Shown one piece after another: positions 4,721 to 20,000 of a DNA stretch of 20,000 bases. The notes under the pieces were generated by a model. That model did not search any database. It had not been told where the DNA came from and was given only the letters and a program-made list of their open reading frames with translations. The translations under genes were made by a program, and so were the position numbers. Every line of letters starts with the position of its first letter. Position 1 is the first letter of the stretch. This DNA is from Trichodelitschia bisporula (lineage: Eukaryota): the NCBI GenBank assembly GCA_010356995.1, contig ML996690.1, positions 932,155-952,154 of the forward strand, read 5' to 3'.

Positions 4721-7700
4721 GTATGCCTAGGTGATTTCCGATAGCCCATCCGACGAGGGAAGAGCTGGGCGCGGCTTATTCGCAAACGAAGAGGTGGTAG
4801 AATGGGGTACTTACGAAGCCGGAAATGCGATAGATACGGGCCACGCGGGGCCGCTTGATGGACGGGAGGAGCCGCCAGGCTAGTTCGAGGGGAAGCTAGG
4901 CGCTGTCTATCCCTTCAACCTTTTGCCCTTGTTAGTCTGTTGACGACAAGTTGTGAAGTTGTGGATGGATAATCGTTTCTCCTCGATGGGGATGAGACCT
5001 TTCCTTCGCAGTTAGAATAGCCGCACGCCGCGGGCTCAATTGTTCCACGGTACTGTATGTTTCTCGAGTCCCGCGCTAACGACACGATACAACATGACTG
5101 ATACGATGTTGTCTGCTCAACTCCAATCGAGCCTTTAATCCAGCACCAGGACGCTTGCTAACACCCATCTCACACATTATCCGGTCACCTCTTCCACAGA
5201 ATCAACTACGTATCTCCTCCATCGGAACAGTCTGTATGCCCCCTCTATCCCTCACTGCGCTGCCAAACTCCCACCCAAAACCATGACCGCCACTCCGGCA
5301 TCCTCCTGAGCCTGTTTATGCTCGAGCCCTGGTCAGTCTCGATATCCCGTACAGCACCTACGACGCGGGCATAGACGACGCAAGCAGCGTGGGCGGTGCA
5401 CATGGATGAACAACCGGGTATGTCCTCCAGCGGAATCTTCGTCTATGAACTGATCAGTTGGTAGGAGAATTTGATGCTCTGTGGCATGTAGCTGTCTCCT
5501 CTAATCTCGTTCTCCCCCTCCGCGCCCGACAGCTTACAGCCTCATTCTTGGCATTCTGCCCCGCAGTTGAGCTCAGCCGGAAGCCCCTAAACCTCGCCTT
5601 TACCCTCGAGTTCCACTCCTGCAATTTCATAAGTCCGCAGTTTCTTAACTAGCATCATTATTTCCAAGATGCCACCTGCAAAGCTGGTCCCGACACGGGA
5701 CCGCTTCCATGCCTCTTCTAGTCTTTCACGACCCTCCTCACCTGTTACTGGTGAGACTACTACACCTGCCCCCGCGAGCAATATCAGCCAGACCTTAACC
5801 TTACTACTTACCCTCCAGAGAACCACCAACAGAAAGCCAACCCGCCGACTTCGTCACGAAGACTATACAATAGGATGGATTTGCGCGCTCCCGATTGAAC
5901 TTGCAGCAGCCCAGGAGATGCTTGATGAAGAGCACCGACCTCTTCCCCAGGACGCGTCCGATCCCAATAGCTACACGCTCGGCCGTGTTGGCGAACACAA
6001 TACGGTCATCATGGTCTTGGGGCTGACGGGCACAAACTCAGCGGCCACGGCGGTTGCTCGAATGCAGTCAACCTTCACTTCGGTCAGCTCGGCGTCATGG
6101 TCGGCATCGGAGGCGGTGTACCAAGCTCAGAAGCCGACATCCGGCTTGGGGACGTTGTGGTTTGCCAGCCGTCCAAGGATTGTGGCGGAGTGATTCAGTA
6201 CGACTTGGGCAAGACCAGGCCGGACGGAGTTGAACGAACTGGATTTCTGAACGCGCCCCCAATGGCCTTGCTGAGCGCGCTGGTGAGTCTGAAGGCTAGC
6301 CATCTAAAAGGAAGAGTCGGTTTCCTAGATCATTTTGCAAAGCTCAGCAGCCAGTCTCTTTTCGCTCGCGACAAGGCTGGGCCCGATATCCTATACGACC
6401 CTGTGTACAACCATGAGGGGGGAGAAGAAAACTGCAACAATTGTACGAAAGAATATAGCGTGCGGCGCCAGACGCGTGGCGAACATGTCATAGTTCACTA
6501 TGGTACGATTGCCTCGGGGAATCAAGTCATGCGCGATGCCAAGGAACGCGACAAAGTCAGCGAGAAACTCGGAGGCGTCCTGTGCTTCGAAATGGAAGCC
6601 GCCGGGGTGATGAACAGTCTTCCATGCCTGCCTGTACGGGGAATCTGCGACTACTCGGACTCTCACAAGAGCAAGAGCTGGCAGCCGTACGCGGCGGGAA
6701 CGGCGGCAGCGTTCGCTAAAGAGCTTTTGTTGCGGCTTCCGCCGGCCAAGGTCAAGATGCCTGAAAGCGAGACAGACCCATCCGCGCCGGCAATGCCCCT
6801 AAGCTTACCCAGGGCTGCAGACACACCATCCAACCCATACGAGCGGAAAAAATCGCCTTGCTTGACTGGTACCCGTGTTGAACTTCTCAAACAGATATAC
6901 GCCTGGGCTTACGGGGAGAACTCGCCAAATATTTTCTGGTTGAGTGGTTTAGCTGGCACCGGCAAGTCCACCGTGGCTCAAACTGTGGCCGCCGAATGTT
7001 TTCAGAAGGGAAAGCTTGGAGCCAGCTTCTTCTTCTCGCGAAGTGGCGCAGATGTCCGGCATGCCGGCAAGTTCGTGACAAGCATCGCAGCGCAACTTGC
7101 AGACAATGTGCCGGGGGCAAAGCGGTCTATCTACAAGGCTCTGAAGGAGCGGGACACCATCACTGAAGAGCCTATCCGCAGTCAGTGGCATCATCTCATC
7201 CTCGGTCCCATGTCGAAGCTCGAAGGCGACACCTCTGCTCCGTACATCCTGGTAATCGATGCCCTGGACGAATGCGAGGGCGAGGACGACATAGGGGAAA
7301 TTCTGAATCTCTTTCTCTCGCTGAAGAAAACCCGGCTCCGGCTGTTTTTAACGAGTAGACCTGAAGTGTCAATCCGGTCTCAGTTATCCGAAATGCCAAC
7401 AAGCGAGCACCTGGACTTTGTGCTCCACAGAATTGAGAAGTCGACTATTGACAATGATATCCGCTTCTTCCTACGGCACGAGCTCGAACGTCTAGCCCGG
7501 GAACGCTCTTTTGACAAAGATTGGCCAGGCGAGCAAGACATCGACTCTCTTGTCCGGAATGCCAGTGGCCTGTTCATCTGGGCCGAAACCGCATGCCGCT
7601 TTATTCGACAGGGAAAAGCATTGGCTCCCGAGAAACTAAGCTTGATCCTCGACCAAAGCCATAGTACTGTGAAAGCGCCAGAGAAGCATCTCGACGAGAT

Positions 7701-8175
7701 CTACGCGACTGTTCTTCGCCAATCCCTTACCGACTATGAAGACGATGATGCAGAGAAGCTGCGATCCACATTGAAGGAACTGCTTGGAAGCATCGTGGTC
7801 ATGTTCAATCCACTTTCCGCCCAATCCTTGAGTGGGCTTCTCAAAATCCCCCAATCTAAAGTGAATGGAGCACTGAATGATCTCCACGCAATTTTGGACA
7901 TTCCAGAAGAGCCAGCCAATGCACTCCGCTTACATCATCCTTCGTTTCGTGACTTCCTTCTCGATTCGAGGAGAAGCGGAGATACGGGTTTCTGGGTAGA
8001 CGAGAAGCAAGCGCATCAAACCCTTGCCACAAATTGCATGGACCTGATGTGCAAGTTCCTGAAGTAGGACCAATTGGAGATCGGCCAACCAGGTGCACTT
8101 GCAACAGATACAGATTCGAGTCGAGTCGACCGATGTCTTCCTCCCGAAGTTCAGTACGCATGCCTCTACTGGATC

Positions 8176-8379
8176 CAGCATCTTGAGAAGGGCGGCTCCC
8201 AGCTTAAAAATCACGGCCAAATCTCTCAGTCCCTGCCGAAACGCCTCCTTCATTGGGTGAAGGCGCAGGGGCGGACGCAGCATTTTGAGAAGGGCGGTTC
8301 TCAGCTTAGAGATGACGACCAAGTCCATCAGTTTCTAAAGAAGCATCTCCTTCATTGACTTGAGGCGCTTGGCTGGATG
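8176..8379 (+). repeat. In-frame 102-bp (34 aa) diverged tandem duplication inside the NLR
   Basis: QHLEKGGSQLKNHGQISQSLPKRLLHWVKAQGRT (8176) is followed by QHFEKGGSQLRDDDQVHQFLKKHLLH*LEALGWM (8278). The paralog has one unit. Confidence 0.9.
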
Positions 8380-8694: not shown

Positions 8695-9534
8695 TTGCTG
8701 CATACGCTCGAGGGCCATTCGACTTGGGTCAGCGCCGTAGCCTTCTCGCCAGACGGCAAGCAGCTGGCGTCGGCATCGCACGACTCGACGATCAGGCTGT
8801 GGGACGCCGGCTCGGGAAAGACGCTGCAGANNNNNNNNNNNNNNNNNNNNNNNNNNNNNNNNNNNNNNNNNNNNNNNNNNNNNNNNNNNNNNNNNNNNNN
8901 NNNNNNNNNNNNNNNNNNNNNNNNNNNNNNNNNNNNNNNNNNNNNNNNNNNNNNNNNNNNNNNNNNNNNNNNNNNNNNNNNNNNNNNNNNNNNNNNNNNN
9001 NNNNNNNNNNNNNNNNNNNNNNNNNNNNNNNNNNNNNNNNNNNNNNNNNNNNNNNNNNNNNNNNNNNNNNNNNNNNNNNNNNNNNNNNNNNNNNNNNNNN
9101 NNNNNNNNNNNNNNNNNNNNNNNNNNNNNNNNNNNNNNNNNNNNNNNNNNNNNNNNNNNNNNNNNNNNNNNNNNNNNNNNNNNNNNNNNNNNNNNNNNNN
9201 NNNNNNNNNNNNNNNNNNNNNNNNNNNNNNNNNNNNNNNNNNNNNNNNNNNNNNNNNNNNNNNNNNNNNNNNNNNNNNNNNNNNNNNNNNNNNNNNNNNN
9301 NNNNNNNNNNNNNNNNNNNNNNNNNNNNNNNNNNNNNNNNNNNNNNNNNNNNNNNNNNNNNNNNNNNNNNNNNNNNNNNNNNNNNNNNNNNNNNNNNNNN
9401 NNNNNNNNNNNNNNNNNNNNNNNNNNNNNNNTTACGTCATGGCCGTGGCCTTCTCGCCGGACGGCAAGCAGCTGGCGTCGGCATCGGGCGACTCGATGGT
9501 CAGGCTGTGGGACGCCGGCTTGGGAAAGGCGCTG
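8695..9534 (+). repeat. 126-bp high-identity WD40 repeat array containing a 601-N assembly gap (8831-9431)
   Basis: Near-identical units flank both sides of the gap. The AVAFS codons at 8734 and 9442 are 708 nt apart (about 5.6 units), so roughly 6-7 repeats if the gap size estimate is right. Confidence 0.85.
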
Positions 9535-11170: not shown

Positions 11171-13405
11171 TCAACAAATGAATTCCATGCACGACACTCG
11201 GCCGGACGCACACCCCAAGCCAACCTCACCCCCGTGAAGAGCGACGCTCGCCTCGCGGTACTCGGCTGGAAGCCAAGGACGCCTTTCTGCGCCTACAGTT
11301 ACCCATTGCTCCTTGACCATGATGGAGCGTGGAAGATCTGATCGGGGACTTCCTAGCAGCTTGCCGTCCGGCGAAAAGGCCACGGCCCAGACATGAACCG
11401 AATGGCCCTCGAGCGTCTGCAGCGCCTTTCCCGAGCCGGCGTCCCACAGCTTGACCGTCATGTCATCCGATGCCGACGCCAGCTGCTTGCCATCCGGCGA
11501 GAAAGCCACGGCGTTGACCCAAAATAAATGGCCTTCGAGCGTCCGCAGCATCTTTCCCGAGCCGGCGTCCCACAGTCTGACCGTCGAGTCGTGCGATGCC
11601 GACGCCAGCTGCTTGCCGTCCGGCGAGAAGGCTACGGCCCAGACCTTACCCGAATGCCCCTCCAGCGTCTGCAGCAAGGCATCCCAGTTGTCCCTAACCT
11701 GCGGTATTCCGGGCATCCATAGAGGCATTTGGCTTTGAAACCGCCTTTTTACAAGACTTGCTATCGGGGAAAATACCAGCGCGCTGCAATATATCTGCAA
11801 GGGAGCTAGTTCGATGGCTGACCGGTTATAGAGGACAAATCGTTTCAAGTCATGAACAAACTCCGATAGTCCGGGACACCTCTGCGCCTGAGCCAAGTAT
11901 CAGCCAAGTATCCCCACTCTGCTTTACGTCCAGCTTACCGATATCATGGACTCCAAAGACACGATGACATGGAACTCTTCGGATACCGTTTGCATCCATC
12001 CAAGCGGCTCAAGCCAATGGAGGAGATGCTCCTTCAAGAACTGATGAACTTCGCCGTCATCGTCGAGCTGAGAGCCACCCCTATGAAGATGCTGCATCCA
12101 GTAGAGGCATGCATACTGCTTCTCAGGATGGAGGGAGCCTTCAACCCTATGACGTTCGACCTCTGTCACAAGTGCACCAGGCCGACCTATTCCAAGCATA
12201 TCCTGCTTGAGGAAGTTAGACATTACTTGTATGCATTTTGTGACAAGGGCTTGATGCGCTTGCTCTTCATCAGCCCAGAGACCTGTCTTCCCGCTTCTCC
12301 CTGGATTGAGATGGAAGTCACGAAACGAAGGGTGATGTAAACGGAGTGCGTCGCCTGGTTCCTTTGAAATGTTCAAAACGGCGTGAAAATCATCCAGTGC
12401 CAGAGCCACATTCTGGACAAGTAGCTCACTCAAGGACCTGATCGAAAGTGGATCGAACAGGATCACGACGCTTCCAAACAGTTCCTTTAGCGTCGATCGC
12501 AGTTCCTCCACATCATCGTCTTCATAGTTGGAAAAGTATTGGCGAAGAACAGTCGCGTAGATCTCGTCGAGATGCTGCTCTGGCCCTTTCGTGGTACTAT
12601 GGCTTTGATTGAGGATCAAGCGCAGTCTCTTGGGTGCCAATGTTCTTCCTCGTTGAACAAAGCGGCATGCGGTTTCAGCTCAGATGAACAGACCACTGGA
12701 ATTCCGGACAAGAGAGTCGATGACTTGCTCGCCTGGCCAATCTTGGCCAAAAGAGCGTTCCCGGGCTAGACGTTCGAACTCGTGCCGTAGGAAGAAGCGG
12801 ATATCATTGTCAACAGTCGACTTCTCAATTCTGTGGAGCACAAAGTCCAGGTGCTCGCTTGTTGGAATTTCGGATAACTGAGACCGGATTGGTACTTCAG
12901 GTCTACTCGTTAAAAACAGCCGGAGCCGGGTTTTCTTCAGCAACCGAAAGAGATCCAGAATTTCCCCTATGTCGTCCTCGCCCTCGCATTCGTCCAGGGC
13001 ATCGACCACCAGGGTGTACGGAGCAGAGGAGGTGTCACCTTCAAGCTTCGACATGGGACCGAGGATGAGATGGTACCACTGACTGCGGATAGGCTCTTCA
13101 GTGATGGTGTCTCGCTCCTTCAGAGCCTTGTAGAGAGTCTGTTTTACCCCCGGCACATTGTCTGCAAGTTGTGCTGCGATGCTTGCCACGAACTTGCCGG
13201 CATGCCGGACATCTGCGCCACTTCGCGAGAAGAATAATCTGACTCCAAGCCTTCCCTTCCGAAAACATTCGGCGGCCACAGTTTGAGCCACGGTGGACTT
13301 GCCGGTGCCAGCTAAACCACTCAACCAGAAAATATTTGGCGAGTTCTCCCCGTAAGCCCAGGCGTAGATCTCTTTGAGAAGTTCGGCCCGGGTACCAATC
13401 AGGCT
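11171..13405 (-). pseudogene. Inverted, 5'-truncated NACHT-WD40 paralog of the 5669-9608 NLR (no PNP domain)
   Basis: Homology starts at LIGTRAELLKEIYAWAYG (about 13403), with Walker A GLAGTGKST and Walker B LVVDALDEC. One in-frame TGA at 12682-12680 replaces the W of GLFIW. A GT-AG intron lies at 11938-11888, followed by about 2.5 WD40 units and the C-terminus [10 protein letters not shown]. No convincing ATG or effector domain upstream. Confidence 0.92.
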
Positions 13406-13884
13406 CTTTCGTTGGCCAAGATTCAAGCAACTTAACTGAACGAGCGAACCGGCAGGATACGCCTCGCTCACCCAATTCGCTGACGAGAAGACAACAATGG
13501 CCCAAGATACACCATTGTACGACGCTGGCTTAGGGGCGGCCTCCGTTGGGCAGCAATGCAAAGCGGGGGAAGGTTGACAAAAAACGGCCGATAAATGTCA
13601 AATCTGCCCTACCCTCGTTGGCTTAGGGTGTAATTTGCTCCAAGCAAAGGGGGTGGTTTGTAGATTAGTTGGTGGTCGGACCGGATTACCGGTCCCCGAG
13701 GATCACCACGTATGAACCTGGGCAACCGGAGATCTCGAGGAGATCAACGGTTCGCACTGTACCTTTCGCACTATTTGCATCCGCTATTGACTGGATTAGC
13801 TCGCCTAACTACCTATCAATCCACTAAGAAACACCTTTATTGCTTACATTCGAACCGTTCACCCCCAGGGGCAGCGGCATAGCG

Positions 13885-14545
13885 ATGGCAGTCCCCAAGA
13901 ATGCCCACTCGGCTCCAAAGGCAAGCAACCCACCCGCGAGCTGATATCTGATGCTGCAGAACCCTTGGGCACTCCAACGGCTTCCTCTGCTATCGAATTC
14001 ATCGTCCCAGAAGAGCGGTACCGCGGTTCGCAACGCGTCATTCCTGGGGACAACCCCGGCGAAACGAACTTCCGGCACGACAAGTCGAATTAGCCGCCTG
14101 ATGACCAGGCCGACTCTGAAGACGAAAGGGACAACTCCTATCGCACTCGCACTCTGCCGGCTGAGGCCTCGGCTAGAACTCTTTCGTCTCCGAGCGATCG
14201 TGGCCTGGGAAGAGGAACGTCTCGAAGTGCTGAAACTTCGCGCACGCCCCCATGCAATTCAGGAAGCTGTCGAAGCTGAAGATCGCGGTGAGAGCACCCT
14301 TCTCCACAACCCGCTGGAAGTGACTGGCATCACGCAAGCCAACGCCACAATGACGGACTTCTCCCAGCCGGTGCCGCGGGAGTGATGCCAGCACTCGTAC
14401 TTCGTCGTTCTCCCACCCCGCCGGGAGTAGATGCCATCCTTGGCATGCCTTGGCTCGAGACCTTCAACTCCGCGTTGGATCTCCGCCGCAAGACGATGAC
14501 CTTCCGCGGGAACCCGCCCGCTTCCACAACGATGCGACGGCTACT
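13885..14545 (+). mobile_element. Ty3/Gypsy retrotransposon remnant (possible gag start plus C-terminal half of aspartic protease)
   Basis: LHNPLEVTGI..., then from 14430 DAILGMPWLETFNSALDLRRKTMTF, matching the retropepsin C-terminal motif DxILGMPWLxxxNPxIDWxxxTMTF. It has stops and frameshifts and ends where the next LTR begins. Confidence 0.7.
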
Positions 14546-14945
14546 TGTCACGGGGTGAAGCTGGACGCAGGTTGCACCCGCTTTGGGATGTAAAAGAGTT
14601 TCAATAACTTCTGAAAGAAAGCTCTCACCGATGCTACATAGAGTGGATGTCGGGGGTGGCCTTACTATTCTCCGGTCTACGGTCGCTAGCGCAGGCCGCA
14701 GGCCTGTGCGCCAGCTTCAAAGGGTTAGCCCGTCATATCACACCCCTCCTCCGCCTCCGCTATAGGTCGGTTCATCTGCAGAGCCTCCCATTGATCCAGG
14801 GCGGCTGTCTCCACGTTCTCCGCCGGTTCCCAAGTTGGAGTCGGCCAACCCATTTGACGAGGAATTGGCGTACTGTTCGATTTCCTTTGCCGGGTAGTCG
14901 TTTGAGGCGTTCACCAACGATCTCCTCCGCACCGTATTCTTCGCC
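14546..14945 (-). mobile_element. 3' end of a chromovirus (Ty3/Gypsy): chromodomain, polypurine tract, 3' LTR
   Basis: The minus strand gives GEEYGAEEIVGERLKRLPGKGNRTVRQFLVKWVG/PTWEPAENVETAALDQWEAL (chromodomain with one frameshift, about 14945-14780). The PPT GGAGGCGGAGGAGGGG is at 14758-14743. The LTR runs from TATGACGGG (14737) to CCCCGTGACA (14546). Confidence 0.85.
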
Positions 14946-15062
14946 GGATCCTCACCGCTATTCATCCTGTAGGGTAGTGCAGTTCCGGTCGGCAGACTGG
15001 GCTTGGTATTGTCCTACCGATCATCACTTCGCCTTGATTGAAGCAAGGGTATGAATGTTAGA

Positions 15063-15352
15063 AGGGTTTTCCGGCCGACAGCCCTCTACACAGCAAGTGA
15101 CGATCAGGCACGTTCAACGTAGCGACGCATGAATCAAACCACAAAATCCACTCGGTGGGTATCGGCCAGCCACACCAATGCTCGCCTTCGATCCCTCTTC
15201 TCCACCTCGCTCCCAAAGCCCAACCCCACTCCAAACGCGCATTCCCTACCCTATACTCACCGCTTGCACTGCGCCACTCATATCCGGCCACGCTCCCTCT
15301 GGCTCTCAGCCGCACTCACACCAATGCACTTCTCGAAATCACACTGAACAAA
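15063..15352 (+). repeat. Left arm of a ~290-bp degenerate inverted repeat
   Basis: Blocks ttccggccgac, gtgacg, aatccactcgg, gccttcg.tccct, ttctccacc, ccacgctccc and ctcgaaatca..ctgaacaa recur in order on the minus strand of 16260-15990. Confidence 0.8.
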
Positions 15353-15749
15353 ACGGTTGGGGCGGGATGCCGTGCGAGAGCAGGGTGTACCACAGGAGTG
15401 TGCCGTTCTGCGGCTGCTGAGGCGTTGGATGGGCGCAACCTCTACTACTAACGTAGCACTGCCAAAACCACCGCCAATCCGCGACCCCCGCCTCCCTCCT
15501 CGTTGGGCCATCGGAGGGATTGCGTTGGGAAGGAACGGGTGGTTGTGCCTAGGTGCGGGGAGCGGCGGCCGGTGAGGGTCTGCATGCCGGGGCGATGCAC
15601 TGGTACGGAAGGGTTTTCGTGTGCGGCGTGACTTGCTGCTGGGCTGCAGCTGGCTCTGGCTGGCGGGCCGTCATACTGGCTGACCACGGGTGGGAAGGCA
15701 GAGTAGCCGTTTCCAGTAGGGCCGCGGATAATTGCCGTGACATGCTTAG

Positions 15750-16001
15750 GGACGAAGTGGAGCAGGAATGGAGACGGATCGTGGGAGATAGCACGGCGGC
15801 AGAGACAGCGTGTTTCAGTTGCAACTCACTGATCCAGGACGGTGAGAATATCCATCAGCAGCGCGTCCAAGTCGCTATCCCGCGCCGCCTCTTGCTGTGC
15901 GCGTTCCGCCTCTTGCTGTGCGAGTTTCTCCTCTTGCCGTGCAAGTTTCTCCTCTTAGAAAAGCTTTTGTAGTCCGGCGATTCAGGCAGGTTGTTCAGCA
16001 T
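15750..16001 (-). pseudogene. 5' remnant of a coiled-coil-leader gene with 21-bp tandem repeats (15888-15956)
   Basis: ATG at 16001 gives MLNNLPESPDYK, then a 1-nt shift to LF*EEKLARQEEKLAQQEAERAQQEAARDSDLDALLMDILTVLDQ. The unit cctcttgc.gtgc starts at 15888, 15909 and 15930, with a partial unit at 15951. Confidence 0.55.
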
Positions 16002-16260
16002 GATTTCGAGTGCGAATGACGTCACGTGTATTCGTGCGAGTGGGAGCGTGGTTGACGTGAGTGCGAAGTGCTTGTGGATGGAGAAATGCGGGGTGGAGAA
16101 AGGTGGGTGGAGAAAGACAGGCAAAGGGACCGAAGGCAAGCTTCATCGGTGCTCGCGGATTAAGGATCAGCCGATCTCCGAGTGGATTCGGTGGCTTGAT
16201 AGAATCGCATGGTGGCTAGTGCACGGCGTCACATGCCATGAGAGTCGGCCGGAACAACCT
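15990..16260 (-). repeat. Right arm of the ~290-bp degenerate inverted repeat
   Basis: Its reverse complement aligns blockwise to 15063-15352, and its inner end contains the ATG at 16001. Confidence 0.8.
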
Positions 16261-16743
16261 TGGTACGCCCGCCCTAGTCAATGCATCAATGCGCCAAGCC
16301 ATGTCGATGCCCCAATCAACGCGGCCAAGTCATGCGTCAGCACCCATGTCAATGCGCCCATGGATTGCAGACCTGGTTCATGTCGTGTTTCTCAGTTTTA
16401 GAGCGTCTGTCATTTCTCGGCATCGGCAACATTAAGCGTCTAACCAACCAAGTCGAAAGTGCCATGCAAGCCATTCATTATTGGAAAAGATTTGAAAGGA
16501 TGAGCACGTTCGCTAGAACAACAACAAGAGCTTTCGAACAATTAGAGACACAAGGAACAACATGAAATTGAAAATAATGGCCTCCTGCTGAAGCTCGTGT
16601 CCCAAATTTGTCGACCAGGAAACCCTCGTACTCCTACGCTATCAAGACGACCCCTCACCCGAGTCACTCCACCAAAAAAACGCCTGTAACTCGAACAGGA
16701 GCCGGATTGCCCTATCCACCACCTACGAAGTATTGAATTTCCA

Positions 16744-16920
16744 TCACGAGTTAGCGTTACAGCGTTGGGGACAACTGCACTTGTGGATGGCGAGGTTCCC
16801 ACGTTGGGAAAATTCCTGGCCACATTCACAGGCAAACGGCTTTTCCCCGGTATGGGTGCGCTTGTGGTCAATCAAGGGGTCCGACCGTGAAAAGGCTATG
16901 CCGCAGTTGGCAACGTGTCA
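16744..16920 (-). pseudogene. Tandem C2H2 zinc-finger remnant
   Basis: Reads (TGA)[57 protein letters not shown], with the canonical HTGEKPF linker. The first Cys position is TGA (16920-16918). It is not in the ORF track. Confidence 0.8.
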
Positions 16921-17685
16921 GGGGCTCACAGAGTATCACGATAAACAACTGGGGGGGTTGACGCTGCATTCTAACTACGGGGAAGAGAGAATGGGGAAGG
17001 CTTAACAGCGAGCTCTTTAGGAAAGCTCGCAAATCTTTGCCAAGACTAGTGGTCGCTTCGTCATCCACTTCTTGATGAGTTGGTCCTTCCTCCCATGATG
17101 CTTCCACCTCCCATCCCACCTATCCTAGGGTAGAACCATGACATGATCCCCCCCTTCTATGCGCTGCCCCTGCGAGCATTCTTTTCTTCCATCTTTCGTT
17201 TCTCCGTCTGTATAGTCTTCTGGCGCTGCTCTGTGTTTCACAGCCCGCCCGCGGGCGGGATGTGTTCCTCTTGGATAATAATGGTTGCAAGTTCCTTCCT
17301 ATCTCCCTGTTCACGTCTTCTTCCCAGTTGTCCCATGTTTCTTCTGTGTAGTTCTTGAAGCTCTCGGGTGGTCCCGATTTGGTGGTGTATCGTTTGTGGT
17401 AGTCATTGACTAACTTGGGGCCGTTGGAATGCGTTGGCTGTGTTCAGCCTTACCCAGTTTCACCCACAAAGCTCGAGTATAAGAAGACTCGGGGTCCCCA
17501 CCTCTTTGACAATCAAGCAACTTGTTCATGACAGACCTTCGGTCCAACTTGTGATGCAGTGATGTTTCCATTGATCACGCATCGCCTTTTAACACTCTTT
17601 TGCATGGAACATGCTGGAGACATTTCTTGCACAATGTTCATTCCTTTATTCCTTCATGGTACCATGAATGTACAGCGTCGTTACC

Positions 17686-20000
17686 TTATGCGCCAAAGTG
17701 AACATACTGTGCCCAAAGCAGCGGTTGCTTTAAAAAGCCGTCCCTAACCTCCACTGCGGCCTTGTGCAGGGCCACTGCAACCGCTCTGTCGTCAAACTCT
17801 GCCACGCCGTCTTGAAAAACCCGGGAGTAGAACAATTTCGCAACCTTGACACATACTCTGTCACTGGACGGCCACAAGCACCCAACCACATGTCTAAATC
17901 CGGCTACTTGGAATCCACTGACGACGTGCACCACTTCGTCCATCAGCCTGGCTGCTTGATTTTCCGCAGTAGAGCATGCAGAAAGATATGCAATCTCGCC
18001 GTGTGGAAGCCGCATCTGAGATACTTGGCGAACACTAAGCGTTTCCCCTCCTAGCTTTCGGTCTGCTCCCCCAGCCGCCTGTAGAAGTAGGCCACTTTCG
18101 GACGGGTCGGTGGAATGCGATACTCCATGGCAAGCAAAATGAGCAATGTCAGACTCTCCAAGATGCCGCACAACCGTCGCAACGTCGGGCAGATCGAGAT
18201 GTCGTATCCGAGCGGAAGCCCCAACCGCGGCTTCGACCTCACACCGCTCAGCCTTCACTCCGTCAAGGCTGTGCGCATCTGGTGTAGTCCCCATAGTAAC
18301 AATGAGCAACGCCGGCTGGCGGCTACGTGATACAGCTTCGCCAGACGCCCGCTCTCTGGAATAAGCAAGAGCTTTGATTGATGGCGTGTATGACGACACA
18401 GCGCAACAGTATGCATTTTCCGATGCGTGTCCGGTTTCGCCGGCAGCGTGAAACGGGAAAGAACTAGCAAGGCCTGTGCCGATCCACCAGACCCTAGGCA
18501 AGGAGTCTGCTGAGAAGGAGTCTGCTGAGGTTTCGATACGGTACCGAAGCTCCTGAAAAACAAGCTTCACGCAGTTTTGCCACAACCACAAAAGGAATTC
18601 GCGATAGGCCTTGTTCCTTGCGCCACGATCGCCCGACGATGCATTGGTGAGGTCTCGATCCAGCCAATCTTTAGCTCCGGATGCACCGAGGAGAGGAAGG
18701 GGGATGGCTGCGCAATTGGTGGGTGAGATGATAATCGCATCGCTTCTGAGATCGGTGGCATTGACGACAATGATGCATCCTTCTGCTGAACACTTTTGCA
18801 TTTCTTCAATGGCGAGTGCCTTCTGGAACCGGCTGAATTGCGGTAGTCTCCGTATCTCCTCTGTGCACTTTTCCAGCTCTTCAATAGCCTCTGAGAATCT
18901 CTCCAGAGCTATCTGTCGTAGACGCTGATCGGTGTTGCTCTTGATGGGGGTATTGACTTCCTCGCGGAGGCTCTCGTATTTCGTGCAAAGATCCGGGTAC
19001 ACCGCTCGTAGCGCAGAAACGTCACTTCGATCGTCGATGAGGAGTCCGAGAATGAGTGCGCGTCCCTTCTCTAATACTTCTAGAGCCTCGCTTGGAGGTT
19101 TCCCCAATTGAAGGGCAAGAGAGCATGCGCTGGTCGCCAAACCAGAGAACAAGGAGACAACATGCTGCTGATCGTTCCGGCTCAATGATCGAGTGTGAAC
19201 GCGAGGGAGGAGATCGAGAGCATCAACTGAAATGCGATAAGCTGCCTCAAAGTCTTCTCGGTCTTGGAGCAACAAGAGAGCATGCCTGGAGGCACGTAAC
19301 CGGACGAACGGGGGAGCGTTGGGGCAATGCCAAGCCCGTCTATAGGTGTCGAGAGCTGCGGCACTTGAAGACTTTAGGAGAAGCGCCCCTCCCAAGCTGA
19401 GAAGATACGTTGCGAGATCTGGATGACCGCTAGGCGTGATATCGACTGCCGTCCGGGTCACTTTGACCGCCTCTTCGAGGTCGTCCATCTTGCCCGTCCG
19501 CCGATATCGGCTTGCGAGTTTGTTCCCCCAGTTGTTCAGCCATATTGCGAGATCTGGATGATCGCCAGGCGTGATATCGACTGCAGTTTGGGTCACTTTG
19601 ATCGCCTCTTCGAGGTCGTCCATCTTCCCCGTCCGCTCATATCGGCTTTCGAGTTCGGTCCCCAAGTTGTTCAGCCTCCCGGCGAGATCTGGATGATCGC
19701 TAGGCGTGACATCGATTGCCGTCTGGGTCACTTTGATCGCCTCTTCGAGGTCGTCCATCTTNNNNNNNNNNGGGTCACTTTGATCGCCTCTTCGAGGTCG
19801 TCCATCTTGCCCGTCCCTCGATATCGGCTTGCGAGATGGCTCCCCAAGTTGTTCAGCAGCACCGCGAGATTTGGATGATCGCTAGGCGTGATATCGACTG
19901 CCGTCCGGGTCACTTTGATCGCCTCTTCGAGGTTGTCCATCTTGCCCGTCCGCCGATATCGGCTTGCGAGTTTGTTCCCCAAGTTGTTCAGCCTCCCCGC
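17686..20000 (-). CDS. TPR-repeat CHAT (caspase-like, clan CD) protease, 5' end outside the window
   Basis: Open 690-aa frame from 19758 to 17686. CHAT motifs PRVWWIGTG, FPFHAAG, AHFACHG (catalytic His), AYLSACSTA (catalytic Cys), DEVVHVVSGFQVAGFRHVVGCLW and WAQYVHFGA are present. The N-terminal 45-aa TPR-like repeats continue beyond a 10-N gap (19762-19771). Confidence 0.93.
18500..18529 (-). repeat. Perfect in-frame 15-bp tandem duplication in the CHAT domain
   Basis: aaggagtctgctgag occurs twice, encoding SADSFSADSL. Confidence 0.9.
19400..20000 (-). repeat. 135-bp high-identity TPR coding repeat array
   Basis: MDDLEEA starts at 19758, 19623 and 19488 (period 135). Further units start at 19940 and 19805, beyond the gap. 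Confidence 0.93.

Follow-up and report, generated by a model that had tools for sequence, protein, structure and literature searches.

A stretch of 20,000 nt of Trichodelitschia bisporula DNA (assembly GCA_010356995.1, contig ML996690.1, positions 932,155 to 952,154 of the forward strand), referred to here as the window, probably carries at its end the 3′ part of a Pezizomycotina gene encoding a HET-Q2-like TPR-CHAT protease, whose 45-aa repeats are presumed to act as a sensor and are varied on the exposed face of helix A. Both halves of this protein are of known kinds, namely a HET-Q2-like TPR-CHAT protease and homogenized sensor repeats with fixed variable positions, and the protein had already been tabulated; in the literature search, no description was found of internal repeat conservation in the class of TPR-CHAT proteins devoid of a NOD domain.

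The CHAT protease and its repeat array

The visible part of the gene is read from the minus strand as an open frame (17686-19758) without a stop or a joint inside. It was proposed in the original prediction that this frame encodes a TPR-CHAT caspase-like protease, and this identity was confirmed: the Pfam family CHAT was matched at 108.8 bits against a cut-off of 24 (E 4.4e-31, profile positions 7-288 of 289), and the HFACHG and SACST motifs were kept in an alignment of 76 sequences (A1), in which H540, A542, and H544 of HFACHG, as well as L592 and S593, were invariant and C595 of SACST was at least 90% conserved. H544 and C595 are presumably the catalytic pair, as we assume from the caspase and CHAT families in general, and the caspase-type His/Cys dyad is intact. 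Moreover, TPR_10 (PF13374) was matched above cut-off in both pieces of the array (38.7 and 32.8 bits vs. 27.5). The features of the gene and of the array are listed below; the residues at positions 27-28, 34-35, 37, and 41-42 of a unit are given in this order, and i-E is the independent E-value of a unit under a hidden Markov model (HMM) of the 45-aa repeat.

17686..19758, minus strand: 690-aa open frame ending in a stop codon (17686-17688), with TPR units U3-U5, a helical linker, and a C-terminal CHAT domain; 3′ part of a gene continuing upstream over the gap
17692..18585, minus strand: CHAT (caspase-like) protease domain, open-frame residues 392-689, Pfam PF12770
17974..17976, minus strand: Cys595 codon, motif YLSACSTA; predicted catalytic Cys, at least 90% conserved in A1
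18127..18129, minus strand: His544 codon, motif HFACHG; predicted catalytic His, invariant column in A1
19354..19488, minus strand: U5, last unit, second half degenerate; unit HMM profile positions 1-36 match at 19381-19488
19489..19623, minus strand: U4, full 45-aa TPR unit, IW/NK/A/RR; i-E 7.6e-26
19624..19758, minus strand: U3, full 45-aa TPR unit, GR/TE/E/ER; i-E 5.9e-27
19762..19771, no strand: scaffold gap of 10 N within the repeat array; flanks with an exact 37-nt overlap, frame shift across the gap
19772..19805, minus strand: U2p, first 11 aa of a unit interrupted by the gap; 34/34 bases equal to the starts of U3 and U4
19806..19940, minus strand: U1, full 45-aa TPR unit, VL/SH/A/RG; i-E 1.9e-22
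19941..20000, minus strand: U0p, last 20 aa of a further unit cut at the window end, GR/NK/A/RR

The region 19354-20000 consists of head-to-tail units of 135 nt (45 aa) each on the minus strand, and TRF reported at 19410-19761 a period of 135 nt with 2.6 copies, 89% matches, and a score of 564. Any two of the full units (U1, U3, and U4) agree at 33-35 of 45 residues (73-78%; 87% at the DNA level), and U5 has 25-26 of 45 residues in common with each of them. The units had been described as almost invariant, which was too strong given these identities, yet they are clearly homogenized. Their pairwise identity of 0.73-0.78 lies above the looser repeat-similarity limit of 0.7 (GBE 2026), a comparison that involves three full units and a measure other than the T-REKS Psim. 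The original prediction had missed that the array holds a 10-N gap and runs off the end of the window. The simplest solution of the gap is a plain overlap with zero units lost, and any number of hidden units is possible; since the gap and the frame difference fall inside the array, the adjacency of the units and the unit number are not fixed by the assembly.

Downstream of the array, the gene seems to be in full view. The protein runs on for 555 residues after U4, its last full unit, against a median of 564 after the last unit in its fungal relatives, so that the 3′ part of the gene is complete, with ~80 leading residues and several units missing. Relatives were collected in a search of 5.8 billion proteins, which returned 394 of near length (379-1208 aa), and the 120 listed of them were fungal, of about 670-1200 aa, and composed of TPR and CHAT families. 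The closest match among those listed is P0030 (546 aa), with 92% identity across 525 residues; it is a paralogue-like copy of the CHAT part. Four public sequencing runs match the stretch; no RNA run is listed among them, and X3 and X4 are called RNA by guess only; their behavior is RNA-like in that both contain a joined form skipping 13784-13847 (GT..AG, minus strand), which does not occur in the DNA runs, and in that their cover is very uneven, with 0-8.6 over 14670-16381 vs. 200.9 over the TPR-CHAT gene in X3. An X3 contig of 2613 nt spans 16833-19444 without a joint, which would weakly suggest transcription of the gene and the absence of introns over this interval.

The protein is an entry in a published catalogue. 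Clavé et al. 2022 (PMC8851545) reported that 19% of 1,884 fungal gasdermin genes are located at most 10 kb from a CHAT protease gene and that many gasdermin-linked proteases carry TPR, ANK, or WD40 repeats. They demonstrated for P. anserina that the CHAT domain alone of the TPR-CHAT protein Q2L-6 processes the neighboring gasdermin Q1-6, leading to a cell-death reaction. The entry KAF2403023.1 of their Dataset S2 equals the window translation letter for letter in its protease and N-terminal parts (compared by eye), and Dataset S1 pairs it, as a HET-Q2-like CHAT type, with the het-Q1 (gasdermin) homologue KAF2403024.1; the 92% paralogue P0030 is also found in these tables, with a gasdermin of its own. 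The gene model of KAF2403023.1 begins with the first Met in U1 and passes directly from U1 residue 26 to the start of U3, and because it splices over the assembly gap in this way, its 412-aa N-terminal part is an assembly artifact. Another protein of Dataset S2, CAP71703.1 of P. anserina, has the HFACHG and AYLSACSTA motifs in common with the window protein. The repeats of Q2L-6 are degenerate, and the table gives no Pfam repeat annotation for them, whereas the units of the window are 73-78% alike; in its available portion, the article does not address how alike these repeats are to one another or which of their positions vary.

The 45-aa unit is a feature of the whole family. Most relatives show a DLEEAI-type anchor at intervals of 45 residues, and the unit HMM detected ungapped units in 212 of 224 proteins, 1793 in total, with 1337 spacings of exactly 45 aa. 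Among fungal relatives, the number of ungapped units reaches 15, with a median of 9, and the first unit begins at median residue 82 (195 fungal relatives). Among the 208 proteins with at least three units, the mean pairwise unit identity has a median of 0.51 and reaches 0.7 in 30, and 26 are strongly homogenized, i.e., have at least three units each with a partner at least 85% identical. Internal conservation is common but not universal, and the window array, with a mean identity of ~0.76, lies in the upper part of the range. The same 45-aa spacing is seen in TPR-CHAT proteins of Streptomyces, Nocardia, and related genera (P0140, P0155, P0164, and others), which match the whole query at ~30-35% identity; these belong to another kingdom, and the actinobacterial examples listed show low internal conservation. 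In a sequence search of solved structures, no CHAT structure was matched, and kinesin light chain TPRs were the only relative (E 5e-4; PDB 7ai4, 3nf1, and others). They have in common with the window a helix A motif of the DHPD-A--LNNL type, but are built of 42-aa units, lack a CHAT domain, and serve an unrelated function; in the alignment to them, the extra 3 residues of the 45-aa unit fall in the loop after helix B.

Variable positions on a homogenized scaffold

The variable residues of the window units were found as originally reported, with GR, VL, GR, IW, and TY at positions 27-28, NK, SH, TE, and NK at positions 34-35, and further variation at 37 and 41-42; multi-base codon changes were also found, since codons 27, 28, 35, and 41 differ at two or three bases. 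In the 13 most homogenized relatives, and likewise in the HMM-defined set of 26, the within-array entropy peaked at positions 24, 27, 28, 34, 35, 37, and 38, followed by 41, and 7 of the 14 variable positions of the window are among these 8 family positions (hypergeometric P = 5e-4). Most of this variation is confined to the helix-A region (positions 23-42), which accounts for 62% of the within-array entropy and in which the variability moment points 180 degrees away from the hydrophobic moment, with a size reached by 36 of 5000 permutations. Since the two moments are opposed, the variable residues would form a single exposed stripe on the helix that carries LNNLG and is aligned with TPR helix A, the exposure being judged from helical periodicity. 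As helix A lies along the inner groove in TPR proteins, we place the stripe tentatively on the concave face, which agrees with the homology models of NLR (NOD-like receptor) TPRs by Dyrka et al. 2014 (PMC4986451), where the variable positions lie on concave-side α-helices. The likeness to fungal sensor repeats of high internal conservation (HIC) that had been drawn for this array was apt, given that the same positions vary family-wide and lie on what appears to be the exposed helix-A face.

This likeness has its limits. The TPR, ANK, and WD40 repeats of HIC type (HET-E/HET-D/NWD; Dyrka et al. 2014; Ament-Velasquez et al. 2025; GBE 2026) consist, as in the window, of units that are alike except at a few fixed variable positions, and HIC arrays of NLRs show mosaic site patterns between units, as do TPR-CHAT relatives. 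In contrast, the TPR unit of HIC NLRs has 42 aa vs. 45 aa here, and fungal NLRs carry their repeats at the C-terminus, whereas the window protein, most probably NOD-less, carries them N-terminal to the effector.

Selection on the variable codons was assessed with the ratio of nonsynonymous to synonymous differences per site (pN/pS) of Nei and Gojobori, in which counts are saturated at codons differing by two or three bases, so that the ratio is biased low. The three full units of the window, which offer few sites, gave for the eight family positions a ratio of 1.52 (pN 0.43, pS 0.28), compared with 0.50 elsewhere. Units were also cut from the DNA of 79 related metagenome loci, 17 of which were kept for having at least 4 units each with a nucleotide partner at least 85% identical (L035 was left out, its 10 units being identical to those of L036). 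In these 17 loci, the pooled ratio was 0.79 at the variable codons (pN 0.309, pS 0.392) vs. 0.44 elsewhere, and by position it was as follows:

Position 24: pN/pS 0.57 (17 loci)
Position 27: pN/pS 1.05 (17 loci)
Position 28: pN/pS 1.32 (17 loci)
Position 34: pN/pS 1.34 (17 loci)
Position 35: pN/pS 1.81 (17 loci)
Position 37: pN/pS 0.52 (17 loci)
Position 38: pN/pS 0.56 (17 loci)
Position 41: pN/pS 0.40 (17 loci)

Amino-acid change is about threefold faster at the variable codons, with a ratio not clearly above 1. The per-codon dN/dS comparison suggested with the original prediction, in this crude form, did show a raised ratio at these codons, but positive selection was not demonstrated. These values could also be obtained if no selection for diversity acted, the variable positions being simply the least constrained part of the TPR surface, while duplication and gene conversion homogenize the rest and no recognition repertoire exists. 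Such an account would explain why the pooled ratio stays below 1 and positions 24, 37, 38, and 41 reach only 0.40-0.57, why the ranking of positions by variability is nearly the same in 135 non-homogenized arrays (Spearman 0.89), and why pS is also raised at the variable codons (0.39 vs. 0.22 at the others). However, the ratio of the variable codons exceeded that of the rest of the unit in all 17 loci, even though it was above 1 in just 7 of them, and positions 27, 28, 34, and 35 ranged from 1.05 to 1.81. Furthermore, six core positions hold 39% of the within-array entropy in homogenized arrays vs. 21% in the others, the saturation mentioned above lowers the ratio at multi-base codons, and Dyrka et al. 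2014 found positively selected sites on the concave face of related NLR TPRs. Considering both sides, we regard variation without selection as rather unlikely, and a diversified sensor surface as the better description of the array.

The shuffling of variants between units was also considered. The combinations GR+NK, GR+TE, and IW+NK, which had been taken for recombination, represent three of the four possible ones and are compatible with a plain tree, so that recombination is not required. The patch shared by 19937-19980 and 19485-19528 is identical at 44/44 bases and really extends over 46 nt, but its location in a non-adjacent unit, as claimed, is not assertable given the gap. A four-gamete test requires four sequences, and only three full units are visible in the window, whose scaffold is gapped and built from short reads. 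When informative sites lying outside the variable codons were paired in 11 related arrays, 25-61% of the pairs showed all four combinations, and this share tended to be higher for distant than for near pairs (e.g., 53% vs. 30% in L010). The mosaic patterns, present in all 11 arrays, fit gene conversion or unequal crossing-over, and chimeric assembly of short metagenome reads could mimic them. At the protein level, the four-gamete test between variable blocks was positive in 1-2 of 26 arrays per block pair, which is too weak for use.

In the window itself, short-read assembly may have produced, wholly or in part, the unit order, the seeming recombination of variants, and the 46-nt patch, which we consider quite possible, if less probable than the contrary. 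Short-read assemblies are known to break or scramble HIC arrays (Ament-Velasquez et al. 2025), and here the array contains the 10-N gap with its 37-nt exact flank overlap and broken frame, which no contig of the four public runs bridged among the pieces listed. A second gap, of 601 N, lies behind the repeats of another gene of the window, and the summed contig depth of X1 over 19806-20000 was ~100x that of single-copy flanks (which is not a copy number), pointing to many similar units elsewhere that could be confused with these. On the other hand, codons 27-28 and 34-35 are 15 nt apart and a single read can take in every variable codon of a unit, so that the combinations within units are probably real. 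The published gene model also spans the same sequence, and mosaics were found in all of the related arrays, though these are short-read metagenome assemblies too.

Predicted gasdermin partner, domain architecture, and proposed mechanism

In the mechanism proposed for this protease, the scaffold of the units would be kept alike, most likely via unequal crossing-over or gene conversion, and the binding of a ligand to the variable face would relieve the inhibition of the protease. The protease would then remove the inhibitory tail of the adjacently encoded gasdermin, which, once cut, would form membrane pores, leading to cell death. Ligand sensing by the repeats and activation, as well as diversifying selection and the absence of a NOD in this gene, are what we infer from the data.

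The window takes in the whole downstream side of the TPR-CHAT gene, and its upstream side lies beyond base 20000. In related loci, a recurrent family of open reading frames (ORFs) of 280-310 aa adjoins the TPR-CHAT gene. This family had no Pfam or PDB sequence match, and Pfam gasdermin was found in none of 79 neighbor ORFs; its look-alikes in the ESM Atlas included gasdermin D, clusters of bacterial gasdermins (feature score 0.94), and an ascomycete cluster passing the PF26164 bar. Of the 42 loci offering 2.5 kb or more of sequence upstream of the first unit, 11 had a gasdermin-like ORF of this type no farther than 5 kb away on that side. It mostly lay on the opposite strand and 300-1000 bp from that unit, and it was downstream in 1 of 49 loci. 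The partner of the window gene is expected beyond base 20000, because it lies upstream in relatives, which agrees with the accession order in Dataset S1. Since no gasdermin was found in the window, the pairing of this gene with one relies on the published table and on where the partner lies in relatives. In one related locus (L004:4064-5740, minus strand), a 559-aa ORF matched both PNP_UDP_1 (E 1.4e-10) and the gasdermin-like profile (E 1.5e-34), which may be a fusion or a mis-joined frame. Other neighbor ORFs in L001-L079 often matched families linked to non-self recognition or to mobile elements, among them NACHT, NB-ARC-TPR, HET (2), PNP_UDP, NACHT_N, WD40, ankyrin, DDE_1 transposase, and DUF3435 (3).

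Several points weigh against the reading of this gene as a sensor-equipped, gasdermin-activating protease, in addition to the pooled ratio below 1, the small number of loci above 1, and the position ranking shared with non-homogenized arrays, by which the variable positions are perhaps just the least constrained. First, the 5′ end of the gene lies past the window. Second, the unit identity of 73-78% is below the 85% over at least 100 aa that Dyrka et al. 2014 used to define HIC. Third, the concave-face placement was derived from helical periodicity and general knowledge of TPRs. Fourth, gasdermin searches in the window gave only chance-level matches with Pfam on the 25 ORFs of 13600-17750 (E up to 1), two chance-level matches with PADLOC on 27 proteins, and nothing with the profile of the neighbor family in six frames (E up to 100, filters off). 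Finally, a gasdermin-like ORF was not found in 31 of the 42 related loci having upstream sequence.

It was also considered that the repeats inhibit the protease or dock its own gasdermin instead of recognizing a non-self ligand, in which case their variation would reflect co-evolution with that partner. Clavé et al. 2022 chose the CHAT domain alone since the full-length protein might be repressed and inactive, and they described gasdermin and protease genes as linked over long evolutionary times, both of which suit such a role. However, co-evolution with one partner surface cannot account for units that differ from one another within an array, and the studied P. anserina protein has degenerate repeats, which indicates that high internal conservation is not needed for the basic pairing. 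We consider docking or inhibition distinctly unlikely as the cause of the variation, and prefer recognition of a ligand.

The original prediction had left room for a NOD upstream of the repeats, and the protein would in that case be a true NLR with a NACHT-TPR-CHAT order. No NACHT or NB-ARC domain was found in the visible 766 residues of the protein, whose 5′ end lies past the window. The order in question does exist, as P0145 carries a NACHT domain (residues 195-361) followed by TPRs and a CHAT domain (1248-1537), and 5 of 104 longer relatives harbor NACHT or NPHP3_N, with one more harboring an AAA domain; two further NACHT genes are also present in the window. Nevertheless, a NOD family was found in none of the 120 near-length relatives listed, the first unit of fungal relatives begins as early as the median residue given above, and in 11 of 42 loci the divergent gasdermin-like gene begins so close to the first unit, 300-1000 bp upstream, that a NOD would not fit in between. 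Both NACHT genes of the window lie downstream of the TPR-CHAT gene, one of them on the other strand. Judging from these comparisons, an upstream NOD would be possible but unlikely, and a true NLR at this locus seems highly improbable to us next to a NOD-less TPR-CHAT protease.

The first of the two NACHT genes, itself of immune type (5971-8067, plus strand, with 8176-8368 and 8831-9431), matched NACHT/NPHP3_N at 112 bits and had a PNP_UDP-like N-terminus below cut-off (E 5e-4); behind its NACHT frame, tandem repeats of 102 nt (34 aa) are followed by the 601-N scaffold gap, which looks like an array that the assembler did not resolve. The second is a NACHT-WD40 gene (11171-13597, minus strand, then 13784-13847, to about 14596) with WD40 repeats of 126 nt at 11355-11676 (80% matches). 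The 64 nt of 13784-13847 are skipped in the X3 and X4 contigs (GT..AG), which places an upstream exon, without a Pfam match, in 13848-14596.

Further features of the window and implications

Several features of the remaining sequence resemble dispersed repeats. Just 3′ of the CHAT stop, at about 17238-17665, the depth in the DNA runs was ~150-440x that of single-copy flanks, with many loose ends at 17423, 17530, and 17595; this segment looks like a very high-copy dispersed element. It matched nothing in Rfam and does not recur within 13000-17700. Rfam gave no match on the whole of 13600-20000, and no internal repeats were found in 13000-17700. In the DNA runs, the segments 16491-16915 and 15740-15953, the latter overlapping a 21-nt tandem repeat at 15885-15956, had elevated depth and numerous variant letters, so that they too look like dispersed repeats. 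Between the NACHT-WD40 and TPR-CHAT genes, a weak match to the retroviral-type aspartyl protease RVP_2 (14292-14558, plus strand; E 0.007, below cut-off) may be a decayed retrotransposon relic. Lastly, a thioredoxin-domain open frame was found at 1333-1680 on the minus strand (30.1 bits vs. a cut-off of 23.5).

The locus illustrates how published short-read models of such proteins can be truncated or spliced over assembly gaps. Domain tables understate the repeat region in these cases, as seen from the 412-aa N-terminal part recorded here, compared with a family median of ~9 units plus ~80 leading residues.

More generally, we tentatively suggest that NOD-less TPR-CHAT activators of gasdermins may constitute a second class of fungal immune-type receptors, in which a 45-aa TPR scaffold is kept alike and six to eight groove positions are varied. 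As both the unit and the architecture are shared with actinobacteria, such proteins might represent an old cross-kingdom path from a sensor plus a caspase to pyroptosis-like death. In fungal gasdermin pathways, the executioner and the protease are known, but the trigger is not. If the variable groove is a recognition surface, the TPR-CHAT family, with its 26 strongly homogenized members among 208, would provide many natural variants for the search for ligands, and the NLR strategy of keeping the scaffold and varying the contacts would be one that works without a NOD.

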